A DNA stretch of 64,000 nucleotides, taken from the NCBI GenBank assembly GCA_934754495.1, contig CAKVHW010000001.1, positions 136,462 through 200,461 of the forward strand. Reading direction: 5' to 3'. Under the pieces are notes generated by a model, which saw only the letters and a program-made list of their open reading frames with translations, was not told the DNA's origin and made no database searches. The position numbers and the translations under genes are program-made. The DNA comes from an uncultured Clostridia bacterium (lineage in GTDB: Bacteria; Bacillota; Clostridia; Christensenellales; UBA1242). Below are positions 32,725-58,430 of this stretch, piece by piece; position 1 is the stretch's first letter; every line of letters starts with the position of its first letter.

Positions 32725-32734
32725 AAAACGAGGT

Positions 32735-33475: not shown

Positions 33476-33556
33476 AAATGATTTAATAAACTACAATGAC
33501 TTTTTTGAAAAGTATGTAACCATAGAGAAAATTATATTTAGATAAGGAGAAAGTTA

Positions 33557-34276: not shown

Positions 34277-34312
34277 TAAATCAAAATAGCCCCTAAACAA
34301 GAGGCCATTTTT

Positions 34313-34432: not shown

Positions 34433-34592
34433 TATTTACTTGTTGCGTTATAGTACTGAAAACACTACCATAAAAATGGAAACTCCATCAACAAAAAATA
34501 TTACATATACATCAAATCTTATAACCTTTAATGGAATGAAAGTTGAAACTGAACACAAAATAACAAGCTTTTAATAAGGATTGAAAACAATT

Positions 34593-34636
34593 AAAAAAAA
34601 GCATATTTTAGGAATTTTCCTAGATATGCTTTTTTT
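34593..34636. terminator. Bidirectional terminator
   Basis: AGCATAT..TAGGAA-TT-TTCCTA..ATATGCT long hairpin flanked by an A-run and a T-run. Confidence 0.75.
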
Positions 34637-34697
34637 GTGTGGGTATAAAAATTCTTATAATTTTTTTTAAATATTATTAATATAATATTAATAATTG

Positions 34698-35933
34698 TTA
34701 CTCGCTATCATCACTTGGTGGTTCTGGCTCGGCTTCTTCATCGTATTTGTCTTCTAGACTATATAAAAGTTTTTCGCCGCTACTGTCTCTTAGGTCGTCA
34801 TCTTCGCTGTCACTGACTTCGCCGTTCTCGTTTCTAACAAGTGGTTTTGCAGATTGGTGTTTTTGTGTCTTCTTTGCAACTTTACTTTTGTTTTCCGAGT
34901 TGTTGTTGGCTGTTGTGTCGCCGTCAGCATTTTCGGTGTCTTCTGTTGTTTCACTTTGTACATTGGCTGGAAGGTTGTCCATTTTAAATACTTTATTGTT
35001 GTTTTTAATTTCTTCAGCAATTCCAAGTATACAACTAATGTCGTCATAAAGATTATCAAAAACATTCACGCTAAGCTCTTTTAGGTTGCTTTTCATTTCA
35101 AATAAATTTCTATCCAGTGCAATATACATTTCGTCTTTGCATAACAACAACCCAAGTTGTCCAGTACGTTTTTTTAGGTTTTTAAGTTTGTTCATCATAG
35201 TTGGGGTCAAAATGCACAAGGCTTCTACTTGGTCATCGGTGCTTACAATAAAGTTCTTGTTAAATTGAATGTCTTCTAGTTTTATTACTTCAAGGTCTTC
35301 TTCGTCATCGTTAATGGCAAGGGTGCACTTAAATTGAAATGGGAATTTTATATAACCAAAAGCGCCTGTAAATATGTCAATAGTCCTTGTTTCTTCTTCG
35401 GTGTAGGTGATTCCATTGGCATCTCTTCTTGTCACGGTTTCGGTTTCTTCTTTTGTTACGTCAAGGTCGCTTATTAAAAATTGTGTGTTAGAGTCTGTTC
35501 CGTCATCGTTTTTAATTGTTATTTTAAATAAATCTTCGCCACCATATGAGTCGTATATATCAAACAAAAAACTTTTTCTAAATAGTTTTTCGTCCATATA
35601 TTTATCTGGTTCGTAAGAGTAGGTGTAGCCGTCAAGCAAATAGTCCATAATGGCTCTAATATGTTTTTCTTTAAAGTTGTCCCACTTAAATCCGCTTATG
35701 GCTGGGATTGTAAAACAAGTTACAAGTATTACAACACCCATAAAAACACCAACAATAATTTTGGATACAGTACTATCTACACATATCACAGCAAAAATTG
35801 CCATTAATATCTCAATTGGAAGTATTGTGGCAAGTAGTATTTTTGTACGTTTTTTGCACTTTAAAAATTTCTTTTTGTCATCACCGGATATTCGTTTTTT
35901 GGCAAAAGCTTTAAATTCTTCTTTTGATACCAT
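34698..35933 (-). CDS. DUF3137-like membrane protein with an acidic C-terminal tail
   Basis: 411 aa with two N-terminal TM helices. Lies immediately downstream of lemA (4-nt gap), a recurrent pairing. The C-terminus is rich in D/E/S. Confidence 0.6.
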   Translation of the reverse strand: MVSKEEFKAFAKKRISGDDKKKFLKCKKRTKILLATILPIEILMAIFAVICVDSTVSKIIVGVFMGVVILVTCFTIPAISGFKWDNFKEKHIRAIMDYLLDGYTYSYEPDKYMDEKLFRKSFLFDIYDSYGGEDLFKITIKNDDGTDSNTQFLISDLDVTKEETETVTRRDANGITYTEEETRTIDIFTGAFGYIKFPFQFKCTLAINDDEEDLEVIKLEDIQFNKNFIVSTDDQVEALCILTPTMMNKLKNLKKRTGQLGLLLCKDEMYIALDRNLFEMKSNLKELSVNVFDNLYDDISCILGIAEEIKNNNKVFKMDNLPANVQSETTEDTENADGDTTANNNSENKSKVAKKTQKHQSAKPLVRNENGEVSDSEDDDLRDSSGEKLLYSLEDKYDEEAEPEPPSDDSE

Positions 35934-44065: not shown

Positions 44066-44312
44066 TGTTTTCTCCCCATTTATTCTTATATGATTAACAA
44101 AGTATAACATATTACAATAATACCGGTCAACACTGTAAAACTTATTTTTAAAGGATTTAAACAAAATAATTTTGCTTTAATCTACAAAAACTCTTGATTT
44201 TGTGGTTAATTTATAGTAAACTATGCGTAGTTTTTAATAAAACATATCTATTTACAAACATTTTTTAAATGTGTTGTTAGTAAAGTGTTTTTTAAAAATA
44301 AAAACATAATAT

Positions 44313-44400
44313 GGAGAGTTGGCTGAGCGGTCGAAAGCGGCGGTCTTGAAAACCGTTGAAGTGAGAGCTTCCTGGGGTTCGAATCCCTAACTCTCCGCCA
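44313..44400 (+). tRNA. tRNA-Ser (anticodon TGA), long variable arm, encoded CCA
   Basis: Folded by hand. Acceptor GGAGAGT/ACTCTCC, anticodon loop CTTGAAA, long variable arm, T arm TGGGG-TTCGAAT-CCCTA. Confidence 0.9.
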
Positions 44401-44405
44401 TTAGT

Positions 44406-44441
44406 ATCCAGTCTAACATGTTGTTTGGCTGGATTTATTTT
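44406..44441 (+). terminator. tRNA-Ser terminator hairpin
   Basis: ATCCAG(T)C...G(G)CTGGAT followed by TTATTTT. Confidence 0.6.
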
Positions 44442-44460
44442 GATTTTAGAGGTTTGTAAA

Positions 44461-44925
44461 ATGAATATCGAAATTCTTGCTCAATCTATTTTACCATTGT
44501 CTATACATGGTGTAAACCCACGAAAAATTATGGGCGATTATAAATGGAAAAAAATAAAAAAAGAAAAACAAAAAGAAGCAGATCATCATTGTATGTGTTG
44601 CGGAGAATACGTTGAGCACGTTCCAGGTAATTATTTAGAATGTCATGAATTATATGATATTGACCTTGAAAATAGAGAGTTTAGATTTAAAGATGTAGTT
44701 TGTATATGTAAAAAATGTCATCAGTTTATACATTCGGCAAGAACTAAATGCTTAGTGGAAGAGGGTGAAATAACACAAGAATATTTTAATGAAATAATGG
44801 AACGTGGCAATAATTTATTGATGATAAATGGCTTAGAAAAAAAAGACTTATCACAAAAAGAAATAAAAAATCCCAAGTGGGTTTTAATTTATGAGAATAA
44901 ACGTTACAATAATAAGTCGTTTTAG
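44461..44925 (+). CDS. HNH-type zinc-finger nuclease-like protein
   Basis: Start set at MNIEIL (ATG 44461, RBS AGAGG). The track start is TTG. HHCMCCGEYVEH...LECHELYDID...ENREF...CICKKCHQFIH fits the CxxC...H...N...CxxCH pattern. Confidence 0.6.
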   Translation: MNIEILAQSILPLSIHGVNPRKIMGDYKWKKIKKEKQKEADHHCMCCGEYVEHVPGNYLECHELYDIDLENREFRFKDVVCICKKCHQFIHSARTKCLVEEGEITQEYFNEIMERGNNLLMINGLEKKDLSQKEIKNPKWVLIYENKRYNNKSF

Positions 44926-45022
44926 AAAAAACTTACTTCGTAAATTCTAAAATTTTTGGCAACTCTCAAAATCTTACCGCAAAAGAAGTTTGTTCTCACT
45001 TGCAAAACAATCAATAAAACTC

Positions 45023-45054
45023 AAAAAGGAAGAAGTTTAAACTTCTTCCTTTTT
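45023..45054. terminator. Bidirectional terminator
   Basis: Perfect 15-bp stem AAAAAGGAAGAAGTT / AACTTCTTCCTTTTT between convergent genes. Confidence 0.85.
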
Positions 45055-45904
45055 AAGTTAAAAAATAAAACTGATTTATATAATCAAATTTATGTCCTAA
45101 TGTTACAAGTCTTAATTTGCTATTATAATACAATTGTATTTTATCAATATATTTCGGTATTTCAAGAGCTATTAAAGTCATATTTAATCTTTCTTTACCT
45201 TCAGCGTCAATTCCACCTTTTAAATTTCTTTGAATAAATAAGCTATTGTCTTTATTTTTAAATGTGCAGATATAATCTACAAATCTTTTATACTTTACCA
45301 AATCAAAGGTATTTATAAACACCCATTCAATCATTTCGTTTTGTGACATAAAAAATTCATTAAGATAAGGCAATAAATCTATTTCTTCTGGTAACTCATC
45401 AAATATCTCTAATATTTTTCTCTTAGTTATATTAAATTCATCAATCAACTTGGACTTATGCACACAAACTTTCATCTTTTCATTTATATTATTTTGCAAA
45501 GAAATAATAAATGATTTGTGTTGAGATATGTTTCTTAATTCATATAAAAATCTATAACTTAATCTCATATCATAAAAAGTATGTGTTAGTTTAGTGAAAA
45601 ATTTATCACCACATATTTGTTTCAAACCATTTAAAAAAGGTGAAAAGTTTCCTAAAAAAGATTGTATTACATTTTTTAGTTTTGTTGCCAAATTTGAGTT
45701 AATGCGATTATCGTGAACATTCCTTACGCATTCTACAATATCAGCAAAAAGCATTTCATTTTCTTCTGCAATTTGATACAATTTACCCACTCGAATGATT
45801 TCTTCAAAGTCACTATCAAATTCAGGATATAAATTTTTCTCATCTACCAATGTTTTAAGGTTGTATATTCCATCAATTTTCTTTTGTTCAATTAAATTAC
45901 TCAT
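45053..45904 (-). CDS. HEPN-motif protein (Abi-like)
   Basis: YELRNISQHKS gives the Rx4H motif RNISQH at nt 45518-45535. Start set at MSNLIEQ (ATG 45904, RBS GGAGAA). No other recognisable domain. Confidence 0.6.
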   Translation of the reverse strand: MSNLIEQKKIDGIYNLKTLVDEKNLYPEFDSDFEEIIRVGKLYQIAEENEMLFADIVECVRNVHDNRINSNLATKLKNVIQSFLGNFSPFLNGLKQICGDKFFTKLTHTFYDMRLSYRFLYELRNISQHKSFIISLQNNINEKMKVCVHKSKLIDEFNITKRKILEIFDELPEEIDLLPYLNEFFMSQNEMIEWVFINTFDLVKYKRFVDYICTFKNKDNSLFIQRNLKGGIDAEGKERLNMTLIALEIPKYIDKIQLYYNSKLRLVTLGHKFDYINQFYFLT

Positions 45905-46165
45905 ACTTTTCTCCACAACAATTATAGCATATTTGTAATCGAAAATCTATATTTTAAAGTTTTAATATAATATTTATCCTAACCCTCCTATCACCAACAT
46001 ACACTTTTAAGTTAGAATTGGATAGCATTGACTCCGCCAAGTGTGAAATGGCTAGATTTAGCCATTTTTTTGTTTTTTAAAGTAGCGGCAGGACTCATTT
46101 TATTTTGTGCTTTTATAAGCATTGTAATGAGTAAATAAAAATACCTGTTGTGTAAAAGAGTTAAT

Positions 46166-46194
46166 TTGACTTTTTAGTAAATATTTGGTATACT
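46166..46194 (+). promoter_or_regulatory. Near-consensus extended -10 promoter placing the TSS at or near the ATG of the 497-aa gene (leaderless)
   Basis: TTGACT (46166-46171), a 17-nt spacer ending in TGG, then TATACT (46189-46194). The ATG lies at 46201, only 6 nt downstream, with no Shine-Dalgarno sequence. Confidence 0.6.
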
Positions 46195-46200
46195 AATTAT

Positions 46201-47694
46201 ATGGAAATTAAGAAAATTTTAAGTGAAAAAGAGTTTAAAGATTTTGAAGATGCCGTTGTTAAAATAAAATTGGATTGTTTAATAAAAACCGAGAACGACC
46301 CAGACTTTCGCCGAAAAAATATATCAACATATATTGATGTTGACAAAGTTGTGAATGACAACACCTTGTTTAAAAGATTGGCAAACAACTATCACAATGC
46401 AAAAAATTGTTTGGAAAATCTTTACAAAAAACATGAAGATGAATACGTTGATATGTATGAATTTGAAAGAGAACTGTTTAACAATCTTAAAGGTTATGTG
46501 TCAAATCAAGCGGTTTTGGCATCTAAAAATGAATTACCTAAGCGAAAATTAACCACAGAAGAAGCGGTTAAATACGAAGAAGCCCGAAACCTTTACATAC
46601 AGATGATTAGAAGTATTGATAAAGGGCATGCTGACTCGCAATTGATTGCCGAATCGCTAAAAACCCTACCATTGGAAATACTAGCCGACTATGTGGACAA
46701 AGTGGAAAAAGTGGTTGAAGAAAGGTATAACAAACCAAACAACAACAGCCCAAGAATGGCTATTTTGCACGATTATTTATCCACAATCGTTCCATTTTCA
46801 AGTACTTACGGCAACAATCTTGTTACACAAAAAATAGATATAAACACCACACGATTAAAAGGCTCCGACCCCAAATTTGCCTTGATGCCAACACATTTAA
46901 GAACCCTTGCGTTTCTTGAAAACCAACTACTGCTTAGCGACACTGGGCTAGACAAACAAAACATAGGATTTGACGGATACAGATTTTTTAACACAATTAC
47001 AAACTCAACCATTTTAAGTTCTACACTAAAACTTAATTTGACTTTTCTTAGCACAGCGGACATATCAAAACAATCAAACTTTGTTTTGGACGAAGACTTT
47101 GCCGATATGCTTATTTCAATCCACAAAGTTCACCGTAAAGTTACAAACAAAAATGTTATAACAAGCGTGCAGGAGGTTGATGGCGACACAATAATAACAA
47201 CCAAAACTTTGTTTAAGCCTGTTTTTGATGATTTGCCAAAGGCAAGAAAGACTTATGTTCAGCTGTGTATGGGGTTGGGACATTTTTGCAAAGTTAAGGA
47301 ATACAACAAAACAAAAAACACATTTAATATTGAATTGTATTACTTTGCCGACCCAAACAGCACAAACGGCATACAACTTCTACGCTTAGATAAAGTGGCA
47401 GATATGTTTAAGGGCAAACCAGCGAGTCACAACCTTCGTGGTAAAGAAAAAATTGAAACAACCATGCATATACACAAATATAATCTTGTAGATGCTGTTT
47501 TAAAAAACTACCAAAGTCCAGATAGTCTTGGTAAAATGGATATATCGTACAACTTTATCACTGTTTCAAAACCCAATATATATGCGGCAGAAGAACTTTT
47601 TAACAATAAATGTGGAATATATAACAAAGCTCTAAACAACAAAAATAGAAAGTTTTTTGAAAGAAAGCCCCCACTTCCAGACATGGAAAAGTAA
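46201..47694 (+). CDS. Hypothetical protein (497 aa orphan)
   Basis: Long uninterrupted ORF bounded by a strong promoter and a terminator. No motif I can assign. Confidence 0.7.
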   Translation: MEIKKILSEKEFKDFEDAVVKIKLDCLIKTENDPDFRRKNISTYIDVDKVVNDNTLFKRLANNYHNAKNCLENLYKKHEDEYVDMYEFERELFNNLKGYVSNQAVLASKNELPKRKLTTEEAVKYEEARNLYIQMIRSIDKGHADSQLIAESLKTLPLEILADYVDKVEKVVEERYNKPNNNSPRMAILHDYLSTIVPFSSTYGNNLVTQKIDINTTRLKGSDPKFALMPTHLRTLAFLENQLLLSDTGLDKQNIGFDGYRFFNTITNSTILSSTLKLNLTFLSTADISKQSNFVLDEDFADMLISIHKVHRKVTNKNVITSVQEVDGDTIITTKTLFKPVFDDLPKARKTYVQLCMGLGHFCKVKEYNKTKNTFNIELYYFADPNSTNGIQLLRLDKVADMFKGKPASHNLRGKEKIETTMHIHKYNLVDAVLKNYQSPDSLGKMDISYNFITVSKPNIYAAEELFNNKCGIYNKALNNKNRKFFERKPPLPDMEK

Positions 47695-47789
47695 CGATGA
47701 ATTTAAGTATTAAAAGTTAATATTGTGCTTGTTTTTTATTTGTTAGCATAAAAACAATTAGTATAAACAATAACAAAACTGAAGCTTAT

Positions 47790-47827
47790 AAAAAAGATAC
47801 AACAATATTGTTGTATCTTTTTTTTTA
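47790..47827. terminator. Bidirectional terminator
   Basis: AAGATACAACA-ATAT-TGTTGTATCTT flanked by an A-run and a T-run. Confidence 0.85.
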
Positions 47828-47859
47828 AAAATTTTGTATTTAAAAACATAATTTAATGT

Positions 47860-48267
47860 TTAGTGTATGTTTGCTGTTGTGGAAATTAGAGACCATACAA
47901 CGGCATGTTTTTCTTCGTTGTACTTATATTGAGATAGTACTTTATAGACACCCAAAAACTTGCGACAAGAAATTCCTAATACATTTGTATATTTCAAAAA
48001 GACGTATCTTTCAGTGTTTTGTTTTATGTGGTAATCAGCATCTGATATCGTTTTCTTCTCTTTTTCGCCTGTTTTATTGTTGTAACATTCATAGATGTGA
48101 GTTAAATCATCGTCTATCGTGTTTACCCAACCACCTTTATTTGATCCGTCAACAGATAGAGTGGGTGACCATACTTTATTCCAAGAACATTTGTAATAAC
48201 CTTTAACTATGTGCCCAAATACTCCTAGTATGTCTTTCATGTATTTAAGCGAATCTCCCTGCTTCAA
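47860..48267 (-). CDS. Hypothetical 135-aa protein, downstream partner of the STAND gene
   Basis: TTG start preceded by AAGAGG. Same strand as the STAND gene, 76 nt downstream, with no intervening terminator seen. The beta-rich pattern (ERYVFLKY...RKFLGVYKVL...HAVVWSLI) is reminiscent of PUA/SRA-like folds, but this is unproven. Confidence 0.55.
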   Translation of the reverse strand: MKQGDSLKYMKDILGVFGHIVKGYYKCSWNKVWSPTLSVDGSNKGGWVNTIDDDLTHIYECYNNKTGEKEKKTISDADYHIKQNTERYVFLKYTNVLGISCRKFLGVYKVLSQYKYNEEKHAVVWSLISTTANIH

Positions 48268-48343
48268 ATAACCTCTTTATAAATTTACACATTTTAAAAA
48301 AGATATTTTCTACAATGTTAATCTTAGTTGTTTACAAACTGCT

Positions 48344-50974
48344 TTAAATATTGTTCCTTTTTGAAATGTTTGACACATATTCAATATGCTCAACAGCAAA
48401 TCCTTGTTTTTTTTCTATTATTTTTCCAAGCTTAATAATATCCCCAATTTTGGGAGTAAAATCCAGCCTAAATCTAGAAAAATAAATTCCTTTAGGATAA
48501 TCTAAGTTTTTAACAAAACCAAAATCTTCTCTAACATTGTATATTATGGCTTCTCCTTTATTTAATGATGCCAACTCTGAATCAACATCAAAGACATAGG
48601 ATAACAATTCTTCTCGGCCATTAAAATTAGGGAATTCGCTTTTCTTTTCCCTTATAATTTTTTTTAAGCGTTTGAAGTTTGTAGTTTTAAATAAATTAGT
48701 ATTATATTTTCTAAACGTTTCATTGATAATCTCCAAAACCTTTTTGTTGGGGACGACATAAAACATATCTGTAAGTACAAGTGCAATAAAATTTAGAGTA
48801 TCTTCATCTGGATCAGGTTCTTTTTCAACAGTGGTCAAACATTCACTAAGTTTCTCTAGTTTTAAAGAAATGTTTCGATTATCAATTTTTTCAGCCTCTC
48901 TTCTTTTTATGTCAGACAATCTTAAATAAAAAAGATTTCTAGCAGTCCTATTTTTTTCTATATTGTGAAACTCAATTGAATCTATACAATTATAAGCCTC
49001 ATCAAATCTTCCGCAACAAGATAAAATTTTCGTTTTTTCAAAAACAATATATTCATCTTTTTTAATTAGCTCTGCCTTATCCAATTTGTCAATTGCACCA
49101 TTGTAATCATTTGTGCTGAGTAAAAATTTTGCATAATGAATATATATCATTCTTGTTTCATTAATATCCGTTGAATTATTTAATGCTATTTCATATTCTT
49201 CTATTGATCTCTGAGGGTTTGTGCTTGAATTTAAAAAAGCACTTACTATGTTGCAGGCAAAAAAATTCGGACTTATGCGTTTTGCTATATCTAAAAGGTT
49301 GCTACACTCTGAGATGTTTTTGTTTTTATAGCAAGATAATGCTTCTCTAAGATAATATGCCGATACGAGTTTATGTTTTTCACTAGTCGAAACAAAGTAG
49401 TTTTTTATATTGTAAGGATCTGTATTAAAATCTGATGCCAACTCTTGCTCAAAGGCAAACAATCTTTTTTGCTTGTTGTTAAGCCTAATTTGATCATATT
49501 TATCTAGTTTTAATAAGAATTCCTTTGCAAACTCAGATACGGATATAACAGAGTCATCATTATAAATTGTTTGTTCAATAAAACTACTATTTATTAAATC
49601 ATTTATTGCTTTTCTTATTTTTAATTCGTTTCCTTTTTCTACTTCCATAAAATAAAAAAGCTCGCCTATTGTTAATGATTTATTCAGAACAGATAAAACG
49701 TTTAATAAATTTTTCGCATCTTCACTAAGTTTTTCATAAACATTCGACATGCAGAAATTTACAACATCATCCTTATGACTTAGTATATCTTTTATATCTT
49801 TCGCATCTTTACGTGATGATAGTGTTCTTACAAACCATTTTATTGCAAGGGGATTTGAGTGTAATTCATTTTTTGCATAATTTAATTTTTCATCATATGT
49901 AAAATAATTCTTAAATCCATACAATTCAAGTAAGGTATCGAAATATTCTAGCATATCTTCTTCTTTCAATCCCAAAAGTTTATAACGTGTTTCCATCTCA
50001 CCCAATCCAATTCTTGACGTAATAATAACTTTTGCATTTTCAGTAAAACGAGAAAGGAAGTCTTTTACTTCTTCGGAGTTTATTGTTTCCAAGTTGTCCA
50101 AAACAAGTAAAATGTTAAATTTAGTAGATAAAGATATCAAATACTCTTTTATATCAACCTGTTGATCATTACCTCCAACAACATCATACAATTCTTTATA
50201 CATTCCCGATGTATCAGTTATAGCATTTTCTATTTTTTGAAACTCATATTTATTTAGTGTCTTGGTTTTTAAAGATGTCCATAATATCAAATTAAAAGGC
50301 TGGTTTATATCATCAAGTAATTCATATAGTAATTTGATAGTTGTTGAAGTTTTACCAATTCCGCCTTCGCCAACTATACTTAAAATATGCACATTCTTTT
50401 TAAATAGTTTTTCCTTTATTTCGCCTATTTCTTTTTTTCTTCCAATAAAAGAAGTTTCTTCAAAATCAACGTCTTGTGGTAAATTTTCAATAACACTAAG
50501 AGATTTTTTCAATCTAATTTTAGATTCAAGCTTTAACAACTCGTCGTTATTTGGCAAAATATTATTTTGAGCAAAATCCACATTTGTCCAACTAAACAGT
50601 GACAGCTCTTTACTGATACAATTAAAACATTCCTGCAGTTTTGGAAAATCATAAAAATCAAGTAGCCTTGGGTGCATTATTTTGTTTCTAATTCCTATTA
50701 TTTCAGACAATGTGGAGTTGACAAATTTCTTTTCACTGCTTGTGGCTTCTAATTTTAATATATTATAATTAAATATTTCAATATATTGTTGTAAGTCTAA
50801 GGCTCTTAAGAAATCCTCAAAGCTGTTAATGGCTTTTTTGCTACTAATTTCACTTTTTAAGTTTGATGGAATGTCGTCTAATGTTAAAAACTGTAAATAA
50901 TTATAAATAATATCTTCTTCTATTGAATTAATCATTACATACATTTTTATTCGTTTTAAAAGTTTATTTATCAT
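48344..50974 (-). CDS. STAND NTPase fusion: N-terminal Swt1-like HEPN, NB-ARC-type P-loop NTPase, TPR-like repeats, C-terminal cold-shock (OB) domain
   Basis: HEPN motif RNKIMH at nt 50672-50689. Walker A GEGGIGKT at nt 50348-50371. Walker B LLVLDNLE, plus IITSR and SNPLAIKW (NB-ARC-like RNBS-B and GLPL motifs). Helical-repeat region at about aa 540-700. The C-terminal GEAIIYNVREDFGFVKNLDYPKGIYFSRF...GDIIKL...GFAVEHI (nt about 48374-48556) matches the CSD pattern G-x-V-x-x-F-x-x-x-x-GFGFI...VF. Confidence 0.8.
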   Translation of the reverse strand: MINKLLKRIKMYVMINSIEEDIIYNYLQFLTLDDIPSNLKSEISSKKAINSFEDFLRALDLQQYIEIFNYNILKLEATSSEKKFVNSTLSEIIGIRNKIMHPRLLDFYDFPKLQECFNCISKELSLFSWTNVDFAQNNILPNNDELLKLESKIRLKKSLSVIENLPQDVDFEETSFIGRKKEIGEIKEKLFKKNVHILSIVGEGGIGKTSTTIKLLYELLDDINQPFNLILWTSLKTKTLNKYEFQKIENAITDTSGMYKELYDVVGGNDQQVDIKEYLISLSTKFNILLVLDNLETINSEEVKDFLSRFTENAKVIITSRIGLGEMETRYKLLGLKEEDMLEYFDTLLELYGFKNYFTYDEKLNYAKNELHSNPLAIKWFVRTLSSRKDAKDIKDILSHKDDVVNFCMSNVYEKLSEDAKNLLNVLSVLNKSLTIGELFYFMEVEKGNELKIRKAINDLINSSFIEQTIYNDDSVISVSEFAKEFLLKLDKYDQIRLNNKQKRLFAFEQELASDFNTDPYNIKNYFVSTSEKHKLVSAYYLREALSCYKNKNISECSNLLDIAKRISPNFFACNIVSAFLNSSTNPQRSIEEYEIALNNSTDINETRMIYIHYAKFLLSTNDYNGAIDKLDKAELIKKDEYIVFEKTKILSCCGRFDEAYNCIDSIEFHNIEKNRTARNLFYLRLSDIKRREAEKIDNRNISLKLEKLSECLTTVEKEPDPDEDTLNFIALVLTDMFYVVPNKKVLEIINETFRKYNTNLFKTTNFKRLKKIIREKKSEFPNFNGREELLSYVFDVDSELASLNKGEAIIYNVREDFGFVKNLDYPKGIYFSRFRLDFTPKIGDIIKLGKIIEKKQGFAVEHIEYVSNISKRNNI

Positions 50975-51457
50975 TTAATACGGTTACCTTTTGTTTTTTT
51001 ATATTATACCATAAAATACTAATTTTCCAATTAATTATTAATCTTATTTACATAATGTAACAGCTTTAATTCAACATAACAACATAATATTGTTGTTTGA
51101 GATATTAATTTTCTATCATTTTAGATTAAAACACATTAATTTCAATATAAACTATTGTTACTACAAGGGCAAGCACTTCGTCGAAAAGAACTGACAACTA
51201 AATATCATTTACACCCATAATTAACCGTTTTTGCGTGAGCAAGTTGAAAATCTTTAATGTTTAGTGTGTTAAATATTATAGAAAGCTCTTGACAATTATT
51301 ATTATAAATATTAATTTATTTATAATATGAAGTTATTAATTATAAATCGTTTAATTTATGATGGACGCTTACTGAAAATAATTTTTTTGTCTAATTACAT
51401 AAGGATTTAAAGGTGGCTATCAATGATTTCAAATAACAAATAATTGGTGGAAGTGAT

Positions 51458-52654
51458 ATGACGACTTTTTTAATAGTGTTTATCTTGGTTTTGGCAGCAG
51501 TATGTGTTTTGCACTGTTTTTTTACAAGTCCATGCAACTTTAGGGATTGGTTTGTTAACAAACATGCATGGATTTGGATTGTTGGAGTAGTTATATCTTT
51601 TATTATACTAGCTTTATTCATTGAATCGCCACTGATTTTTGTTTGTGTATTCGCTGCGGGGCTTTTTATAGTTTTTGTGGGCTGTAATAATTGGTCGACC
51701 ACAAAAGATGCCAGAGAAAAGAAAAACAAAGAAAAAAATGATAACTTTTTTGAGGAGTGTGTTTATAACAAAATAGATAAAATGCTTATATATTCTAGTT
51801 GTGGAACCGACTTTAAAATCGAAAAACACAAATTTACATGCTATAGTAATAAATTGAAAAAAATTATTGATAACATATATTTCGATGTTAAGAATAGAAC
51901 AAATAGAGATGATTGTCGTGAAGACTATTATATATTGAGAAATTTTATTGGTGACTCTTTGGAAGATGTTACAAAATTCGAAAAAAAAGTTATAGAGAAT
52001 CGTTTCAAGTTTGTAAGCACAGATTTGGAGGTGGCTAGTTTCTTTGATGTAAAGTATAACAAAATAAGTGAATATTTGCTAAATTTCAAGGAAAGCATGT
52101 GTAAAACCTTTTTAATAATCAAAGGAGGATATATTACTCCAAACAAACAAGACCTAAGGATATATAAAATCCTGCCAGAAAAGTTGATTGAAATCGAAAG
52201 AAAAAACATGAAACCTTATTTAAGAATATTCGAAATCGAAAATTTTTTAAGGATATATATAAATTTAAAGTATTATGCAAAATATGGCAATTATAGTTTG
52301 GATGAATTATTTAAATATGCTACAAAAGCAAAGGCTAAATCACAAACAAGATTTGAAACTGCACAAAAACAAGGTTGGACAATGCCTTTAGAACAGCCAA
52401 TTGTGTTTTATGTTAATTTTGAAGACTTGGAATCCTTGTTAACAGCCTCATCCAATTGGGATTTGTTCAAGGACGATTTTAAAAGTCAAGATTTTATTAA
52501 GTTGCGTTTAAATGAATTATATGATATAAGAAACAAAATAGCACACAATTGTTCTCTAAGTAAGAGTGAAATAACAAGCTTAAACAGATGGTGTGGTCAA
52601 ATTTATTCGCAACTTTCAAACTACAAAGAGAAAATAAGAAATTGGAAGTTCTAG
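51458..52654 (+). CDS. Membrane protein with three N-terminal TM helices and a C-terminal Swt1-like HEPN domain
   Basis: RBS GGTGGA. TM segments lie within aa 1-80. NELYDIRNKIAHNCSL gives RNKIAH at nt 52529-52546. The upstream VNFEDLESLLTASSNWDLF parallels INSFEDFLRALDLQQYIEIF of the STAND protein. Confidence 0.75.
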   Translation: MTTFLIVFILVLAAVCVLHCFFTSPCNFRDWFVNKHAWIWIVGVVISFIILALFIESPLIFVCVFAAGLFIVFVGCNNWSTTKDAREKKNKEKNDNFFEECVYNKIDKMLIYSSCGTDFKIEKHKFTCYSNKLKKIIDNIYFDVKNRTNRDDCREDYYILRNFIGDSLEDVTKFEKKVIENRFKFVSTDLEVASFFDVKYNKISEYLLNFKESMCKTFLIIKGGYITPNKQDLRIYKILPEKLIEIERKNMKPYLRIFEIENFLRIYINLKYYAKYGNYSLDELFKYATKAKAKSQTRFETAQKQGWTMPLEQPIVFYVNFEDLESLLTASSNWDLFKDDFKSQDFIKLRLNELYDIRNKIAHNCSLSKSEITSLNRWCGQIYSQLSNYKEKIRNWKF

Positions 52655-52675
52655 ATCTGATTTTGCTATAGATAA

Positions 52676-52701
52676 ACAAAAAGAGCCATTGGCTCTTTTT
52701 G
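52676..52701 (+). terminator. Terminator after the TM-HEPN gene
   Basis: AGAGCC-ATT-GGCTCT followed by TTTTT. Confidence 0.7.
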
Positions 52702-52829
52702 TTTGTGTAATATTGATTTAAAATATAAAATTAAAATCTGCCGTGTTTCATATTTTTCTTAAGCATGTTGTTTACAGGGTTTGTAAACATTGTCATAATT
52801 CTGTAAACAACTTCTTTAAATTAACATGC

Positions 52830-53168
52830 TTAGATGCATTCTACTTGAATTGCCAATACACCGTAGGTTTGTTCGTCGTAGGGTGTGTAGAATGTGTGAT
52901 AGGTATCAACAATCTGTTCTTTAGAATAATTTTCAAAACCCAGTAGGGTGGCAGGAAGAGTAGATGCCATTTGAACAAATGATTTAAAGTGATATAGGTT
53001 GGTTACCTTTACCTTAATTGTTTGCCTTGTTGTTAGACTTGTAAAAACTATTGTGTCGTCAATGTTAATAAGTTTACGTTTTTCATCGTTTAGTCTAACT
53101 TCGTATATTTTTTCTTTAGATGCAATTTTATTAAAATACACATCTTGAAGTTTCATCTCATGAACCAT
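52830..53168 (-). CDS. ASCH domain protein
   Basis: KLQDVYFNKIASKEKIYEVRLNDEKR fits the ASCH N-terminal pattern (F..I..G.K..E.R). About 110 aa. Confidence 0.65.
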   Translation of the reverse strand: MVHEMKLQDVYFNKIASKEKIYEVRLNDEKRKLINIDDTIVFTSLTTRQTIKVKVTNLYHFKSFVQMASTLPATLLGFENYSKEQIVDTYHTFYTPYDEQTYGVLAIQVECI

Positions 53169-53177
53169 ATTTTCTCG

Positions 53178-53660
53178 CTATTTTTCAGTTTTGTTGGTTT
53201 CGTTTGTGTTTGTTAATTTTGCTTTTTGGTTATCCACTTTTCCACGATAAACCACCAATCGGCAGAAAAGATATTCAGTTATAAAATTTAAAATCATTGA
53301 AATTGCAAGCACTAAGTATTCGTTCCAGCCAGAACGTTGTAGGGCGTTGCCACCAATTGTTGAAAGCGGAGTAAATACAAGATAATAGCAAAATACTTCA
53401 AGCATTGCAAGTGGAATATTCGCAGCCGATTTGAATGTGAATTTGCGGTTTAAGGTAAAATTCCAAAGCACGCTTAAAATTAATGAAATTAAATAACTTG
53501 GCCAGTATGGAAGTTTTATTAACTCATTTAAAAGTGTAAACGATAGTAATTGAATAAGCCCAGCACTAATAGAAAAAAACACAAATTTAACGAGCCTTAA
53601 AGTTTCGGCTTTTTTATTCGATGAAGAAGGTGTTTCTAAATTTTTTGTTTCGTTTTCCAT
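53178..53660 (-). CDS. GtrA family membrane protein
   Basis: 160 aa with four TM helices and the GtrA-like pattern FVFFSISAGLIQLLSF...NFTLNRKFTF. Confidence 0.7.
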   Translation of the reverse strand: MENETKNLETPSSSNKKAETLRLVKFVFFSISAGLIQLLSFTLLNELIKLPYWPSYLISLILSVLWNFTLNRKFTFKSAANIPLAMLEVFCYYLVFTPLSTIGGNALQRSGWNEYLVLAISMILNFITEYLFCRLVVYRGKVDNQKAKLTNTNETNKTEK

Positions 53661-53678
53661 TTTTTCATATCCTAAAAA

Positions 53679-54248
53679 TTAATCTCTGTAAATGTTTGAC
53701 CTGCAGTGGTCAGTCCTAAAATGTGCTTCAATTCTAAAAGGTAGCTTGTCTGGTTCTTTAACCTTTTTAACATAAATTAATGTATTTGGGTCGCTCTTAG
53801 ATTGCACACTTTGAAAACCATTATGCTCAAATAATTTTCTGCTAGGTGTGTTTTTAATATTAACATCAGAACTCATGTAGTTAAAGCCCTTTGAGTGCTC
53901 TTTAATGTAGTTTAGCATTTGAGTTGCAACTCCATAGCCCTGAGCCTTTTTTGTTACACCAATTTGCATAATGTGTAAATCTGTGTCTTCGCCACCTTTT
54001 TTAATGTGACAACCACTGTTTAGACCACAAAATCCAACTAAGTGTTCGCCGATATAAGCGGTTATTAAGTGAGTGCAATGGTCGTAAACTATGCTAAAAT
54101 TGCTTAAAAAACCACCTTTGTTAACGTGGTTTTCGTTGATTATTGGAATAAGCTTTTGGCAATTGAATCCATTAATGCGTTCTTCTTTTATTTTAATAGG
54201 TAAATCGGGTATCATAACAAAATTCTCCATATATAAATAGTATATCAC
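53679..54248 (-). CDS. GNAT family N-acetyltransferase
   Basis: IMQIGVTKKAQGYGVATQMLNYI (Q/RxxGxG/A acetyl-CoA motif). The start codon is uncertain. Confidence 0.75.
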   Translation of the reverse strand: MIYYLYMENFVMIPDLPIKIKEERINGFNCQKLIPIINENHVNKGGFLSNFSIVYDHCTHLITAYIGEHLVGFCGLNSGCHIKKGGEDTDLHIMQIGVTKKAQGYGVATQMLNYIKEHSKGFNYMSSDVNIKNTPSRKLFEHNGFQSVQSKSDPNTLIYVKKVKEPDKLPFRIEAHFRTDHCRSNIYRD

Positions 54249-54445
54249 TTTTCATTGTATTACGCAACCTGTAATTGTTTGTTAAAAAACTAAAATGTAA
54301 TGCTTTTTGCTGTACATACACACTAAAAAACATTTTCTAAATGTTTAATATTTTTAGGTATAAAAATTTTTGGGTGTAATATTTTTGTTGACTAAAAGGT
54401 GCTTATTGAATATATTAATATGTATGATTTTTAAAGGGAGAAAAC

Positions 54446-56200
54446 ATGTTTAAACTTATATTTCAAAACACTAAAAAACGAGAATGGCTTTCAGTATTGG
54501 CGGTTGTAATTTTCATTGTTGGGCAAGTATTTCTTGATTTAAAACTTCCAGATTACATGCAAGAAATCACGGTTATGATAAATGGCGGAACAGCAACCAC
54601 AAGTGCGGTGCTAAAATCAGGCGGATTTATGCTACTATGTGCTGTAAGTAGTGCTTTATTATCGGTATGTGTAGGATATATTGTTGCTAGATTATCCGCA
54701 ACAGTTTCAGCCAGAATTAGAAGTAAAGTTTTTAATAAAGTGCTAAGTTTTTCGCATGGCGAAATAAATAAATTTAGCACCGCAAGCCTTATCACTCGTA
54801 GCACTAATGACGTTGCACAAATTCAAGGTTTTATTGCAATGGGCATGCAGGCTTCAATTAAAGCACCAATTTTGGCGGTGTGGGCAATATGTAAAATTGC
54901 AAATAAAAGTTGGCAGTGGAGCACTGCAACAGCCGTGGCAGTTGGATTCCTTCTAATTGTTGTTGTAACATGCCTAGTTCTCGCTTTGCCAAGGTTTAAA
55001 AAGATTCAAACTCTTACTGATAATCTTAATAGGGTTACTAGAGAAAACCTTACAGGTGTAAGAGTGGTTAGGGCATATAATGCCGAAAATTACGAAGAAC
55101 AAAAATTTGAAAAAGCAAACAACGACATTACCCAAAACCACTTGTTTACTCAAAGGGTTATGGCTATTATGAGTCCGGCAATGTCAATGTTGATGAGTGG
55201 TCTTAGCCTTGCAATTTATTGGATTGGGGCTCACTTAATCAATGAAGCACCACTTGTTAGTAAGAGTGTGCTAATGGGTGACATGGTTGTATTTATGTCG
55301 TACTCAGTTCAAGTAATTATGGCATTTATAATGCTAGTAATGATATTTGTTTTGACTCCACGTAGCATGGTGGCAGGAAAAAGAATAAACGAAGTATTAG
55401 ATACTAAGTCCAGCATTTTAGACGGTGAAGGGAATATTGTACCTGAGCCTAATAAAACTGGTGAAGTTGAATTTAAACACGTTTGCTTTAAATATCCTAA
55501 TGCTGATGAATATGTGTTAAAAGACATTACTTTTACTGCTAAAAAGGGTGAAACTGTGGCAATCATTGGCTCAACAGGTTGTGGGAAAAGCACACTTGTA
55601 AACCTTGTACCTCGTTTTTATGATATTACAGAGGGAAGCCTTACAGTAGATGGTGTAAATGTTAAAGAATACAAACTTGCAGATTTACATAATAAAATTG
55701 GCTATGTATCGCAAAAGGCGGTTATGTTCTCTGGAACAGTTGAAAGTAACATCTCGCTTGGCGATTACATAAAAGAACCTACAAAAGAAGATATGATGAC
55801 TGCCATAGATACAGCACAAGCAAGTGACTTTATAAAAACAGAAGACGACCTTAATAAACCAATTACTCAAGGTGGTCTTAACGTGTCTGGTGGTCAAAAG
55901 CAAAGGCTTAGTATTGCAAGGGCATTACTTAGAGCACCTGAAATTTTAATTTTTGACGATACTTTTTCAGCCCTTGATTACAAAACTGATAAAAAACTTA
56001 GAAAGGCAATTAGCCAAAAATTAAAAGATAGCACATGTTTAATTGTTGCTCAACGTATTGGAACAATTAAAAATGCAGACAAAATTATTGTGCTAGAAGA
56101 TGGTGAAATTGCAGGAATTGGCAAACATGACGAACTTCTAAAAACCTGCAAAGTATATCAAGAAATAGCACTTTCACAATTAAGTAAGGAGGAATTGTAG
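54446..56200 (+). CDS. ABC transporter permease/ATP-binding protein (exporter half-transporter)
   Basis: Six-TM domain, Walker A GSTGCGKST, signature VSGGQKQR and Walker B ILIFDD. Confidence 0.9.
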   Translation: MFKLIFQNTKKREWLSVLAVVIFIVGQVFLDLKLPDYMQEITVMINGGTATTSAVLKSGGFMLLCAVSSALLSVCVGYIVARLSATVSARIRSKVFNKVLSFSHGEINKFSTASLITRSTNDVAQIQGFIAMGMQASIKAPILAVWAICKIANKSWQWSTATAVAVGFLLIVVVTCLVLALPRFKKIQTLTDNLNRVTRENLTGVRVVRAYNAENYEEQKFEKANNDITQNHLFTQRVMAIMSPAMSMLMSGLSLAIYWIGAHLINEAPLVSKSVLMGDMVVFMSYSVQVIMAFIMLVMIFVLTPRSMVAGKRINEVLDTKSSILDGEGNIVPEPNKTGEVEFKHVCFKYPNADEYVLKDITFTAKKGETVAIIGSTGCGKSTLVNLVPRFYDITEGSLTVDGVNVKEYKLADLHNKIGYVSQKAVMFSGTVESNISLGDYIKEPTKEDMMTAIDTAQASDFIKTEDDLNKPITQGGLNVSGGQKQRLSIARALLRAPEILIFDDTFSALDYKTDKKLRKAISQKLKDSTCLIVAQRIGTIKNADKIIVLEDGEIAGIGKHDELLKTCKVYQEIALSQLSKEEL

Positions 56201-56201
56201 C

Positions 56202-58001
56202 ATGCCAAGACCAAATAATAATGCTAATATGGGCAAAGCAAAAAACTTTAAAAAATCCGCCTTACGTTTCTTTGGGTATTGCAAAAAACACATGGTTACA
56301 ATCATAATTGCTGTTGTGCTTTCGGTTGTTAGCACAGTGTTTACGCTAATTGGGCCAGATAAACTAAAAGAAATAACCAACATTATTTCAAAACCATTTG
56401 GAATATTACAGCAAACAGGTGTGTGGGTTGGAATTGATATTAATGCAGTTTTAAAAATTGCAATTTTTCTTGTTGTTATTTACGGGGTTGGTGCAATTTG
56501 TGGCTATACACAAGGCTTTTTAATGAGCGGAGTTACACAAAAAGTTTCTAAAAAAATGCGTAGTGACATTTCGTGTAAAATAAACCGCTTGCCACTAAGT
56601 TATCTAGACCGTACTCCGTATGGTGACGTGCTTAGCCGTGTAACCAACGATGTTGACACGGTTTCGCAATCGCTCAACAACAGTATTACTACTTTAGTAA
56701 GTGCAACAACATTATTTGTTGGAAGTGTTGTTATGATGTTTGTCACCAACTGGATTATGGCACTATCGGCAATTGGTGCATCACTAATTGGATTTGTAAT
56801 AATGTTTTTGGTGATGTCTAAATCACAAAAGTACTTTATTGAGCAACAACAAGTGTTGGGAGTTCTAAACGGACAAATTGAAGAAGTTTATTCTGGTCAA
56901 ACAATTGTTAAGGCATATAATGCCGAACGTGAAGTAACCGAAAAATTTGAAAATAGTAACTCAAAACTATACTCAAGTGCGTGGAAATCACAATTTTTAA
57001 GTGGTTTAATGGGACCTATCATGAACTTTATGGGAAACTTTGGCTATGTTGTTGTGTGTGTTGTTGGCTCGGCACTTGCAATTAAGGGCTCAATAAGTTT
57101 TGGTGTAATCGTTGCATTTATGGTGTATATTAGATTATTCATGCAACCACTTAGTCAATTTGCACAATGCCTAACAAATGTTCAACAACTTGTAGCATCA
57201 AGCGAACGTGTATTTGAATTTTTGGACGAACCAGAACTTTTAGCAGAACACCCTACAAAAAAACTTAGCACAGTTAAGGGCAATGTTGAATTTAAAAATG
57301 TTAAGTTTGGTTATAGCCCAGACAAAACAATTATTCACGACTTTAGTGCAAAAATTAAGGCAGGTCAAAAAGTTGCAATTGTAGGTCCAACAGGGGCAGG
57401 CAAAACAACACTTGTAAACCTACTTATGAGATTTTACGAAATAGACAATGGCGACATTTATATTGACGGTATTAATACTAAAGATATGTCTAGAGATAAT
57501 ATTCACAATTTGTTTGGAATGGTTTTGCAAGATACATGGCTATTTGAAGGTACAATAAAACAAAATATTGTGTATTCTAAGCAAAATGTTAGTGATGAAA
57601 CAGTAATTGATGCATGTCGTGAGTGTGGACTTCATCACTTTATTAAAACCTTGCCACAAGGATACGACACAGTGTTAGATGACACAACAACAATCTCGGC
57701 AGGGCAAAAGCAGTTGTTGACTATTGCAAGGGCAATGGTTCAGGACAATCCAATGTTAATTTTAGATGAAGCAACAAGTAGTGTTGATACTCGAACAGAA
57801 ATACTTATTCAAAATGCAATGGATAAACTTATGAAGGGTCGCACAACTTTTGTAATTGCTCATAGACTATCTACAATAAAAAATGCCGATTTAATACTTG
57901 TATTAAAAGATGGCGACATTATAGAAAAAGGCAAACATGCCGAACTTTTAGCTAAAGGTGGAGCATATGCCGAATTATATAATAGTCAATTTGAAGAATG
58001 A
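56202..58001 (+). CDS. ABC transporter permease/ATP-binding protein (heterodimer partner)
   Basis: Walker A GPTGAGKTT, signature ISAGQKQL and Walker B LILDEATS. Starts 1 nt after the upstream gene's stop. Confidence 0.9.
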   Translation: MPRPNNNANMGKAKNFKKSALRFFGYCKKHMVTIIIAVVLSVVSTVFTLIGPDKLKEITNIISKPFGILQQTGVWVGIDINAVLKIAIFLVVIYGVGAICGYTQGFLMSGVTQKVSKKMRSDISCKINRLPLSYLDRTPYGDVLSRVTNDVDTVSQSLNNSITTLVSATTLFVGSVVMMFVTNWIMALSAIGASLIGFVIMFLVMSKSQKYFIEQQQVLGVLNGQIEEVYSGQTIVKAYNAEREVTEKFENSNSKLYSSAWKSQFLSGLMGPIMNFMGNFGYVVVCVVGSALAIKGSISFGVIVAFMVYIRLFMQPLSQFAQCLTNVQQLVASSERVFEFLDEPELLAEHPTKKLSTVKGNVEFKNVKFGYSPDKTIIHDFSAKIKAGQKVAIVGPTGAGKTTLVNLLMRFYEIDNGDIYIDGINTKDMSRDNIHNLFGMVLQDTWLFEGTIKQNIVYSKQNVSDETVIDACRECGLHHFIKTLPQGYDTVLDDTTTISAGQKQLLTIARAMVQDNPMLILDEATSSVDTRTEILIQNAMDKLMKGRTTFVIAHRLSTIKNADLILVLKDGDIIEKGKHAELLAKGGAYAELYNSQFEE

Positions 58002-58003
58002 GA

Positions 58004-58032
58004 AAAAGACCTAAAATAAATAGGTCTTTTTT
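58004..58032 (+). terminator. Terminator after the ABC operon
   Basis: AAGACCTA...TAGGTCTT followed by TTTT. Confidence 0.8.
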
Positions 58033-58119
58033 AAAAACACATGAAAACATTATTTGATTTATTTGTGTCATAATTAATAATGATGCTATAATAAAAATAT
58101 ATAAGGAGTGTGTAATCTT

Positions 58120-58341
58120 ATGAAAAACAAAACAAAAATTATTATGGATGCAATTTGTGGAAGCCTTATTATGCTTAGTATTCTTATCTATATAATTTTA
58201 GGTTTAACAATTAAATGGTGGCACCCAGGTTGGGTTATAATTGTAGGCACAATTATCGTTATTAGCATTATGGCTATTGTTACCGATGCAGTTGTAAAAC
58301 TTCAAGCAAAACCAGAAGAAACACCAAAAGACGAGAAATAA
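58120..58341 (+). CDS. Small membrane protein (2 TM)
   Basis: MKNKTKIIMDAICGSLIMLSILIYIILGL...; the start is uncertain (GTG 58108 or ATG 58120). Confidence 0.5.
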   Translation: MKNKTKIIMDAICGSLIMLSILIYIILGLTIKWWHPGWVIIVGTIIVISIMAIVTDAVVKLQAKPEETPKDEK

Positions 58342-58383
58342 TAAAAAATCACCATTTAAGGACTGACATTTTTGAAACTAGCG

Positions 58384-58430
58384 AAAAAAAATAAGACATT
58401 CTATAAGCAGAGTAGAATGTCTTATTTTAT
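58384..58430. terminator. Bidirectional terminator after hsdR
   Basis: 14-bp stem AATAAGACATTCTA / TAGAATGTCTTATT flanked by an A-run and a T-run. Confidence 0.85.

Follow-up and report, generated by a model that had tools for sequence, protein, structure and literature searches.

A strain-variable mosaic 3' of tRNA-Ser in an uncultured gut bacterium is probably a chromosomal phage-defence hotspot shaped by at least two processes

Downstream of the tRNA-Ser(TGA) gene of an uncultured, low-GC gut bacterium of the Bacillota, a host known solely from metagenome assemblies, lies a stretch of AT-rich DNA with a defence-like gene content, and the question raised by this locus is whether the stretch arrived as one mobile element or was put together from pieces acquired separately. 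The stretch is part of a sequence of 64,000 nucleotides (nt) which was analysed as a whole (the window, whose positions serve as coordinates throughout) and which combines a G+C content (GC) of 31% with three tRNA genes. The original prediction had been that of a single 8.3-kb island without integrase gene, delimited by two short sequences occurring in the same order at both ends. The analysis reported here leads to a different view: the DNA at 44401-52829 is likely to be the variable part of a chromosomal phage-defence hotspot, which extends from tRNA-Ser(TGA) to an ASCH-GtrA-GNAT-ABC gene series and which owes its mosaic character to at least two processes rather than to the arrival of one element. 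Among the strains compared, the locus proves to consist of no fewer than three pieces that were swapped independently. Six genes, not seven as originally counted, are found therein, namely g1 (a phage-type HNH endonuclease), g2 (a rare protein with a HEPN-type motif), g3, a stand-alone SRA-domain protein, a STAND NTPase and a membrane-anchored HEPN protein (g6). The description of this inventory as defence-like stands, but one of the presumed orphans is the SRA protein, and the STAND NTPase is itself one of the three HEPN-motif proteins. We infer a defence function for these genes, as we do every molecular function named in the following, and they are addressed as candidates.

Relatives of the locus were sought by several routes. 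An ASCH-anchored scan of the genome collection gave a best match of 55% with no shared synteny, an ABC-transporter-anchored scan of the metagenome collection gave one of 61% with no shared synteny and no tRNA-Ser nearby, and exact-protein look-ups of the window proteins returned short contigs of one Logan run, belonging to the same strain, and nothing else. A protein search with the ABC transporter identified about 20 variants at 98-100% identity as well as a sister lineage at 79%, and the contigs of those variants yielded four further arrangements of the locus, all of them in human-gut metagenome assemblies. The strain set comprises L123, L124, L127, L128 and L129, which are five strain-level relatives with flanks 97-99% identical, and breakpoints were derived from blastn maps of the window against L123, L127 and L128/129. 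The left anchor of the hotspot is tRNA-Ser(TGA) itself (44313-44400, forward strand; called by ARAGORN, Rfam tRNA 56.9 bits), which is conserved in L123 and L128/129, where Zn-ribbon and M64 genes form the left flank together with it. On the right side, the ASCH gene (52830-53168, reverse strand; Pfam ASCH 3.5e-10) is the first conserved gene, and the flank ASCH-GtrA-GNAT-ABC1-ABC2 is 97-99% identical in L123, L124, L127 and L128/129 up to window position 58359.

Between these flanks the gene content differs among close strains, with four distinct arrangements besides that of the window. The window reads tRNA-Ser, g1, g2, g3, the SRA-STAND-HEPN398 block and ASCH; L123 reads tRNA-Ser, g3, the same SRA-STAND-HEPN398 block and ASCH; L128/129 read tRNA-Ser, g1, a HEC-01-like ATPase with a 161-aa partner, g3 and ASCH; and in L127 other cargo (a PtuA/AriA-like ATPase, an AbiTii-like protein and others) is followed by g3, a 140-aa membrane open reading frame (ORF) and ASCH. 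The blastn breakpoints fall at the tRNA 3' end/46032, at 45020/45961, at ~47831/52781 and at 52830, and window 46032-58359 is 98.8% identical to the homologous sequence of L123. The hotspot measures ~4-9 kb in the strains compared. Its cargo consists mainly of known or candidate defence genes, these being in the window the STAND, SRA/mREase_II-like and PDC-M34B-like genes and, at the same site in other strains, genes matching HEC-01A (5e-53), PtuA/AriA (3e-20) and AbiTii (2e-10), most of which represent candidate families only. That the DNA between tRNA-Ser and ASCH is accessory and strain-variable had been proposed correctly, and the right limit had been placed well too, as variability ends within ~50 nt of it, homology resuming at 52781 in L128 and at 52830 in L127. 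The predicted empty site, by contrast, exists segment-wise only (L123 for g1-g2, L128/129 for the three-gene block), and tRNA-Ser directly adjoins ASCH in none of the strains compared.

The best-defined of the exchanged pieces is the tRNA-proximal segment with g1 and g2. Variable DNA begins at the base after tRNA-Ser position 44400, and the last 8 nt of the tRNA, CTCCGCCA (44393-44400, forward strand), recur at 46032-46039 (forward strand), a site whose homologue is decayed in L128 (CTCCGCTA) and in L127. Just two copies of this G+C-rich 8-mer exist in the 64 kb of a 31% GC genome, as compared to an expectation of 0.25, and none of 100 shuffles reached two. In L123, the tRNA end ...CTCCGCCA is followed at once by the hairpin AAATGGCTAGATTTAGCCATTTTTTT, a join that corresponds to window position 46040 onwards. 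The hairpin concerned is presumably the ancestral tRNA-Ser terminator (GAAATGGCTAGATTTAGCCATTTT plus T-run; 46045-46075, forward strand), which was called as a terminator and lies directly 3' of the tRNA in L123. A second hairpin, ATCCAGTC-loop-GGCTGGAT plus T-run (44409-44446, forward strand; read from the sequence), holds the 10-mer CATGTTGTTT in its loop, accompanies g1 in L128/129 and is missing in L123; it would be a replacement terminator for the tRNA, brought in with the g1 segment. Each CTCCGCCA copy is followed by a terminator hairpin, whereby the hairpins differ between the copies. Taken together, the L123 junction and the CTCCGCCA pair identify 44401-46031 plus one repeat copy as a 1.64-kb indel at the tRNA end, with an 8-bp direct repeat. 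This repeat is the sole junction repeat with both statistical and comparative support, and it bounds 1.64 kb only. MAFFT aligned a longer stretch, 45990-46039, with the 3' half of the tRNA, but this similarity was dropped as not significant, its local score of 17 lying below the 99th background percentile of 22.

Within this segment, conserved ends enclose exchangeable cargo. At the left end, 44303-45020 is 99.3% identical in L128, as compared to 97-98% for the window-L128 flanks. The right end (45961-46031, forward strand) is common to the window, L127 and L128 despite different cargo leftward of it, and it is absent from L123. Between these ends, g2 is found in the window and the HEC-01-like ATPase pair in L128. 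The cargo breakpoint of L128 lies at a palindrome with 21-nt arms (45018-45059), a bidirectional terminator between g1 and g2, where homology ends at 45020. Immediately to its left, the 3' end of a small ORF is preserved as a relic (44955-45020, forward strand), which corresponds to the C-terminus of an 80-aa ORF; this ORF is intact only in L127 (4197-4439), its upstream frame being broken in the window. A core of ~66 nt of this relic recurs at cassette borders (L127 1033-1062 and 4377-4442; L128 4541-4606), and the relic is debris of cassette replacement. The idea that the ~75-nt core after g1 constitutes a small RNA or an attC-like site was abandoned, as Rfam gave terminator-like noise alone and the translation is that of an ORF C-terminus. 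A further CTCCGCCA-plus-hairpin scar, located at L127 3981, suggests repeated, stacked insertions at the tRNA site.

As regards the direction of these events, we infer that the 1.64 kb were inserted into the window lineage rather than deleted from that of L123. An unlikely alternative is that no site-specific step was ever involved, with the CTCCGCCA pair being incidental microhomology, L123 deriving from a window-like ancestor by an illegitimate 1.64-kb deletion and all variation resulting from homologous or illegitimate recombination after transformation or transduction. This account draws on the fact that only 8 nt are common to the two sites, that the extended tRNA similarity is not significant and that a recombinase is not encoded, and flank recombination is moreover the favoured turnover model for core defence hotspots (PMC10250203). 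However, it leaves a G+C-rich 8-mer that is confined to these two places, and it does not anticipate that copy 2 is followed by the very hairpin that terminates the tRNA in L123 and copy 1 by another one, which is predicted by an insertion into the tRNA-terminator junction and unexpected for a random deletion. The additional scar of the same build in L127 speaks against it as well.

Next to the g1-g2 segment lies g3 (497 aa; 46201-47694, forward strand), which is present in all strain arrangements at 95-99% identity. Because it is universal among the strains and of genome-typical GC (0.324), g3 is regarded as a resident of the locus and not as cargo, and for the same reason it does not belong to a single mobile unit. 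Its neighbours differ in composition, with GC values of 0.261 (g1-g2 segment) and 0.278 (three-gene block), as compared to 0.355 in the flanks. The 8.4-kb span as a whole is the lowest-GC stretch of this size in the window (0.284 versus a mean of 0.319, standard deviation 0.015), hence the compositional check proposed originally bears out for GC, but tetranucleotide deviation does not single the region out within the window.

The third piece is a 4.95-kb indel block of three genes (~47831-52780; GC 0.278), which the window shares with L123 and L001, whereas L128/129 lack it and L127 has the 140-aa ORF in its place. Its central gene encodes the STAND NTPase (876 aa; 48344-50974, reverse strand; NB-ARC 4.4e-11), which matches phrog_24039 end to end (4e-89). 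Homologues at 71% and 67% identity share homology confined to the ORF, and no neighbouring window gene was found at either locus, which identifies the STAND gene as an autonomous cargo module; the SRA and membrane HEPN proteins were rejected as obligate STAND partners, as both are missing next to these homologues. The 71% homologue resides in a 7.8-kb integrative element at tRNA-Arg(CCT) of another species (L110 8800-16720, also in L111-L114), whose genes encode a rolling-circle Rep, the STAND homologue, an HTH protein, Nmad3, two small ORFs and a tyrosine integrase, and whose far end holds a partial copy of the tRNA 3' end (8802-8826 versus 16640-16664). This element is a complete tRNA-integrated carrier of the closest STAND homologue and shows what the window is without.

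Indeed, a recombinase domain was found in none of the six proteins with Pfam, NCBIfam, PHROGs and PADLOC, which agrees with the original prediction, and the L110 integrase gave no tblastn match within 44-53 kb of the window. A second copy of the tRNA 3' end, allowing ≤3 mismatches over 23 nt, was not found either, including near ASCH, and neither was a long direct repeat bracketing the region in the window. These results bear on a further alternative, according to which the DNA from tRNA-Ser to ASCH entered once as an integrative element, later lost its integrase and then diverged among the strains by secondary deletions and replacements. A location beside a tRNA and a cargo of defence genes characterise elements of this sort, L110 provides exactly such a carrier of the closest STAND homologue, and the relic gene ends document decay. 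Nevertheless, one old, decayed element is improbable as an explanation: it would have to contain g3, which is universal and of genome-typical GC with AT-rich, variable neighbours on both sides; the tRNA's own terminator stands between the g1-g2 segment and g3, placing g3 outside the tRNA-proximal insertion; no tRNA-derived repeat was found near ASCH; and the identity of the g1 region between window and L128 exceeds that of the flanks, which suggests a recent, separate exchange.

It remains to account for the repeated 10-mers by which the island had originally been delimited. Both are present as described: CATGTTGTTT at 44417-44426 and 52764-52773 and GGTTTGTAAA at 44451-44460 and 52778-52787, each with exactly two occurrences in the window, in the same order and with spacers of 24 nt in the left and 4 nt in the right pair. 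The overlap of the left copy with the tRNA terminator and the ribosome-binding region was likewise confirmed, the one 10-mer lying in the hairpin loop and the other (forward strand) separating the g1 start codon (ATG, 44461) from the AGAGG Shine-Dalgarno sequence. What did not withstand scrutiny is the assumption that chance would hardly ever produce two colinear 10-mers. Taken singly, either 10-mer is found at least twice in 18-19% of dinucleotide shuffles, the window holds 11,290 direct 10-mer pairs, distinct colinear double 10-mers with gaps ≤40 nt number 72 as compared to 42±8 in dinucleotide shuffles, and in 26 of 200 shuffles (13%) a double 10-mer began no more than 80 nt beyond the 3' end of one of the three tRNA genes. 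Furthermore, the copies segregate independently, as L123 possesses the right copy only, L128/129 the left only and L127 neither; L123 carries four of the six genes at 98.8% identity and yet lacks the left copy, and a finding of this kind had originally been named as one that would refute the island. The right copy of both 10-mers (52764-52787, forward strand) also straddles the right breakpoint of the three-gene block (52780/52781). In L128, which is without this block, TTGTAAACATTGTC (window from 52781) immediately adjoins the g3 terminator, a junction showing that in the right GGTTTGTAAA copy CATGTTGTTTACAGGGT (the GGT part) stems from the inserted block and TTGTAAA from the conserved flank. 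The two-block repeat is a coincidence and not a junction repeat. As a consequence, a single integrase-less 8.3-kb island 3' of tRNA-Ser with CATGTTGTTT...GGTTTGTAAA as attL/attR or as a target-site duplication is very hard to uphold, even though the variable DNA has the 10-mers in unchanged order close to either limit and the span is the most AT-rich of the window and free of a recombinase gene, as the pattern of the 10-mers is at chance level, their copies are inherited separately, the segments are absent separately in L123, L127 and L128/129, and the middle is occupied by the strain-conserved g3 with its native GC. More generally, short flanking repeats noticed by eye in AT-rich DNA call for a chance model and a strain comparison before they are read as attachment (att) sites; here both overturn the boundaries proposed.

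For the preferred reading, i.e., a hotspot rendered mosaic by several exchanges, the following course of events is suggested. In a first process, a segment with conserved ends and exchangeable cargo would have been inserted at the tRNA-Ser 3' end between two CTCCGCCA copies, thereby pushing the original tRNA terminator and g3 1.64 kb downstream. The enzyme responsible would not be encoded in the segment and may have been lost or supplied in trans, and the excised site would be expected to read tRNA-Ser...CTCCGCCA joined directly to AGTGTGAAATGGCTAG. In a second process, cassettes would be gained, lost or replaced via recombination in the conserved flanks and terminators, which would account for the 4.95-kb block of SRA, STAND and membrane HEPN genes as well as for relics such as 44955-45020. 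At the protein level, the STAND NTPase may work in an Avs-like manner, whereby its TPR-like arm would sense a phage protein, NTP-dependent oligomerisation would follow and the N-terminal domain, probably a HEPN RNase, would become active and cause growth arrest. g2 and the membrane HEPN protein would each serve a separate system, probably as its RNase effector, and the SRA protein is probably a binder of modified cytosine in DNA.

Several points weigh against the interpretation as a hotspot assembled by insertion at the tRNA. The sample consists of just five strain-level arrangements, and a fully empty site, with tRNA-Ser adjoining ASCH and no g3, was found in none of the compared strains. The sister lineage (79%) is of rearranged synteny and therefore uninformative, such that the ancestral state is not established, and L123 could have lost the segment by deletion between the 8-mers instead of preserving the ancestral arrangement. 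As the similarity to the tRNA 3' half is not significant, the att-type reading rests on 8 nt and the comparative junction. The three-gene block is flanked by no convincing repeat, just by 6-7-nt AT-rich microhomology of the TTTGTA type. The L127 sequence compared stops short of its upstream part, where an integrase could lie. Lastly, PDC-M34B and HEC-01 are candidate families, and g2 and the STAND N-terminal domain were assigned by motif alone.

Comparison with described systems places the locus among known hotspots. Integrase-mediated islands in tRNA genes reportedly form attL and attR, in outline, by duplication of the tRNA 3' end. The g1-g2 segment resembles them in starting at the last base of the tRNA, in ending with a copy of its last 8 nt and in bringing a new terminator, and it differs from them by the missing integrase and excisionase genes, by a repeat of 8 nt and by its size of 1.64 kb; the 8.3-kb unit fails the comparison with a classical integrase-mediated island on the recombinase gene and on co-varying terminal repeats. 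Core defence hotspots adjoin tRNA or tmRNA genes, often without identifiable mobilisation genes, and 'additive' and 'replacement' islands were distinguished among them (PMC10250203, PMC10121019). With the hotspots cDHS1/2 of P. aeruginosa (PMC10250203) and those of E. coli, e.g., #37 (PMC10121019), the present locus shares conserved flanks with a tRNA at one edge, diverse defence cargo among close strains, a GC below that of the core genome, occupants often without mobility genes and signs of stacked insertions. Unlike these, it belongs to an uncultured low-GC gut host, is small (~4-9 kb), holds the resident g3 in its middle and was sampled in five arrangements. The locus is hence a further example of a known hotspot type with a few uncharacterised genes that merit testing, and it documents that defence hotspots beside tRNA genes, built of modular, independently exchanged cassettes in the absence of a local recombinase and described earlier in Pseudomonas and E. 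coli, also occur in poorly sampled gut Bacillota.

Turning to the individual proteins, the STAND NTPase deserves attention first. Its invariant residues in 64 homologues include R96, N97 and H101 (R96-N97-x3-H101) as well as the Walker A motif and G204, G205, G207, K208, T209 and D293. The AlphaFold2 (AF2) model, with a predicted local distance difference test score (pLDDT) of 88.6, reveals a helical N-terminal domain, the NTPase, TPR-like repeats (495-800) and a small C-terminal beta-barrel, and its fold matches comprise the STAND-TPR protein 6mfv, TPR proteins, plant NLR resistosomes, CED-4, Dark and EfAvs5. The N-terminal domain gave a weak PDC-M34B match (0.004) and a 47-column hhalign match to the membrane HEPN protein (E 0.03), and no Pfam HEPN match. 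In Avs proteins, a C-terminal sensor recognises a phage protein, whereupon NTP-dependent oligomerisation activates the N-terminal effector. Avs1-5 and the members of a wider STAND survey represent bacterial NLR-like receptors (PMC13581612). The present protein is alike in combining three parts, a putative effector at the N-terminus, the STAND NTPase and a TPR-like sensor at the C-terminus, in being a single-gene module of defence islands and mobile elements, and in its fold, which is that of NB-ARC/AP-ATPases and EfAvs5. As compared to Avs1-5, it lies outside the PADLOC profiles, its putative HEPN-type effector is seen by RNxxxH alone, and it carries the additional small C-terminal beta-barrel. 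The PADLOC check proposed originally thus gave the PDC-M34B and mREase_II-like matches within the locus, but no Avs profile at E ≤ 0.01, the STAND NTPase included.

The membrane-anchored, Swt1-like HEPN protein g6 (398 aa; 51458-52654, forward strand; motif RNKIAH) matches PADLOC PDC-M34B (2.3e-18) with its C-terminal half, and its hydrophobic N-terminus was read from the translation. The Pfam HEPN_Swt1 match (1.5e-4) is below the curated cut-off, and a plasmid homologue is annotated as a Swt1-family HEPN protein. With PDC-M34 it shares the similarity of its C-terminal half to component B, from which it is distinguished by the N-terminal membrane anchor; a PDC-M34A partner was not found by PADLOC among the neighbours, and the literature search found no paper naming PDC-M34. 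The SRA-domain protein (135 aa; 47860-48267, reverse strand; Pfam PF18491, 3.9e-14) matches the C-terminal, DNA-binding part of the type IV SRA restriction enzymes (PADLOC mREase_II, 8e-12) and differs from these in having no fused nuclease; no nuclease domain was found in it, and a PDB sequence search was empty. The possibility that the SRA protein and the HNH protein g1 form a split type IV restriction enzyme was ruled out by their independent segregation among the strains, as L123 possesses SRA without g1 and L128 g1 without SRA; in the window the two genes are 3 kb apart.

The endonuclease g1 (154 aa; 44461-44925, forward strand; phrog_5200, 1.3e-17) has full-length homologues in Vibrio and Pseudomonas phages (28-35% identity); L128/129 carry it at 98.7% identity, and L123 and L127 are without it. 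g2 (287 aa; 45053-45916, reverse strand) was recognised by an RNxxxH motif of HEPN type, within which R128 and H133 are, like Y121, invariant and N129 nearly so. It has no Pfam, PADLOC or NCBIfam match, and its profile revealed no similarity to HEPN families, the other HEPN candidates, the STAND family or the PDB; its family comprises just 22 representative clusters among 1.84 billion, and its place is taken in L128 by the HEC-01-like pair. The family of g3 counts 26 proteins without a Pfam domain. The AF2 model of g3 is of good quality (pLDDT 84, predicted template modelling score 0.84), its fold search yielded no match in the PDB or BFVD, and D397, H410, R413, E416, H423, H425 and D447 form a conserved C-terminal cluster. 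For both g3 and the STAND NTPase, searches of viral contigs and phages gave nothing. The candidates for experiments emerging from the locus are a well-populated STAND family with a putative HEPN-type effector outside the current Avs profiles, a membrane-anchored HEPN protein, a stand-alone SRA protein, and the two rare, unannotated families of g2 and g3, one of them without detectable fold relatives. A more far-reaching proposal, which we consider unlikely, would assign the g1-g2 segment to a family of mini-cassettes that have no integrase, enter exactly behind the CCA end of tRNA-Ser with an 8-bp duplication and possess conserved ends, a tRNA-proximal HNH gene and swappable defence cargo (g2; HEC-01 in L128), targeting being provided by the HNH protein or by a trans factor; within the same proposal, g3 would represent a new hotspot-resident function, and the ~870-aa STAND family with HEPN motif, NB-ARC, TPR and beta-barrel (>280 members in gut Bacillota, PHROG 24039) an undescribed Avs-like clade.

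A number of further observations were made around the locus and elsewhere in the window. In L128/L129 (2829-3518), an extra gene for a 209-aa membrane protein, absent from the window, lies between the Zn-ribbon gene and tRNA-Ser, hence the 5' side of the tRNA is variable too. In L123 (1387-1505), a partial 5' copy of tRNA-Ser (GGAGAGTTGGCTTAAGCGGT) precedes the intact gene by ~110 nt, and an inverted D-arm-like piece lies between the two; this is either a scar of rearrangement on the 5' side of the tRNA or an artefact of the assembly. Distant ASCH homologues in other gut Bacillota (L002, L003, L008, L009) have a tRNA gene (Glu, Trp, Ser-GCT) within about 100-800 nt.

Past the right flank, a type I restriction-modification block occupies 58360-64000 (hsdR 58430-61393, hsdS 61384-62685 and a further gene; GC 0.285). 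This block is strain-specific, as homology with L123, L124, L127 and L128/129 ends at 58359, these strains carrying a 73-aa ORF and a DAP_DH_C-like gene instead, and it is a second variable defence site just past the ABC transporter pair. On the other side, 3' of tRNA-Arg(ACG) (32648-32724), two ORFs (32840-33475 and 33557-34276; GC 0.27-0.29) are without family matches, and 26 aa encoded at 34358-34435 (reverse strand) are similar (54% identity, E 5e-4) to the C-terminal end of the tyrosine integrase of L110; the region 32648-34700 could be a second, decayed tRNA-linked island. Finally, a perfect 24-nt palindrome, AAAATGTTTCACGTGAAACATTTT, occurs at 1683-1706 and 2812-2835, ~1.1 kb apart, and a 47-nt repeat (81% identical, exact core TGACAATGCCGTGCGCTAGCAC) occupies the intergenic positions 10633-10679 and 14348-14394; both look like operator or leader sequences.

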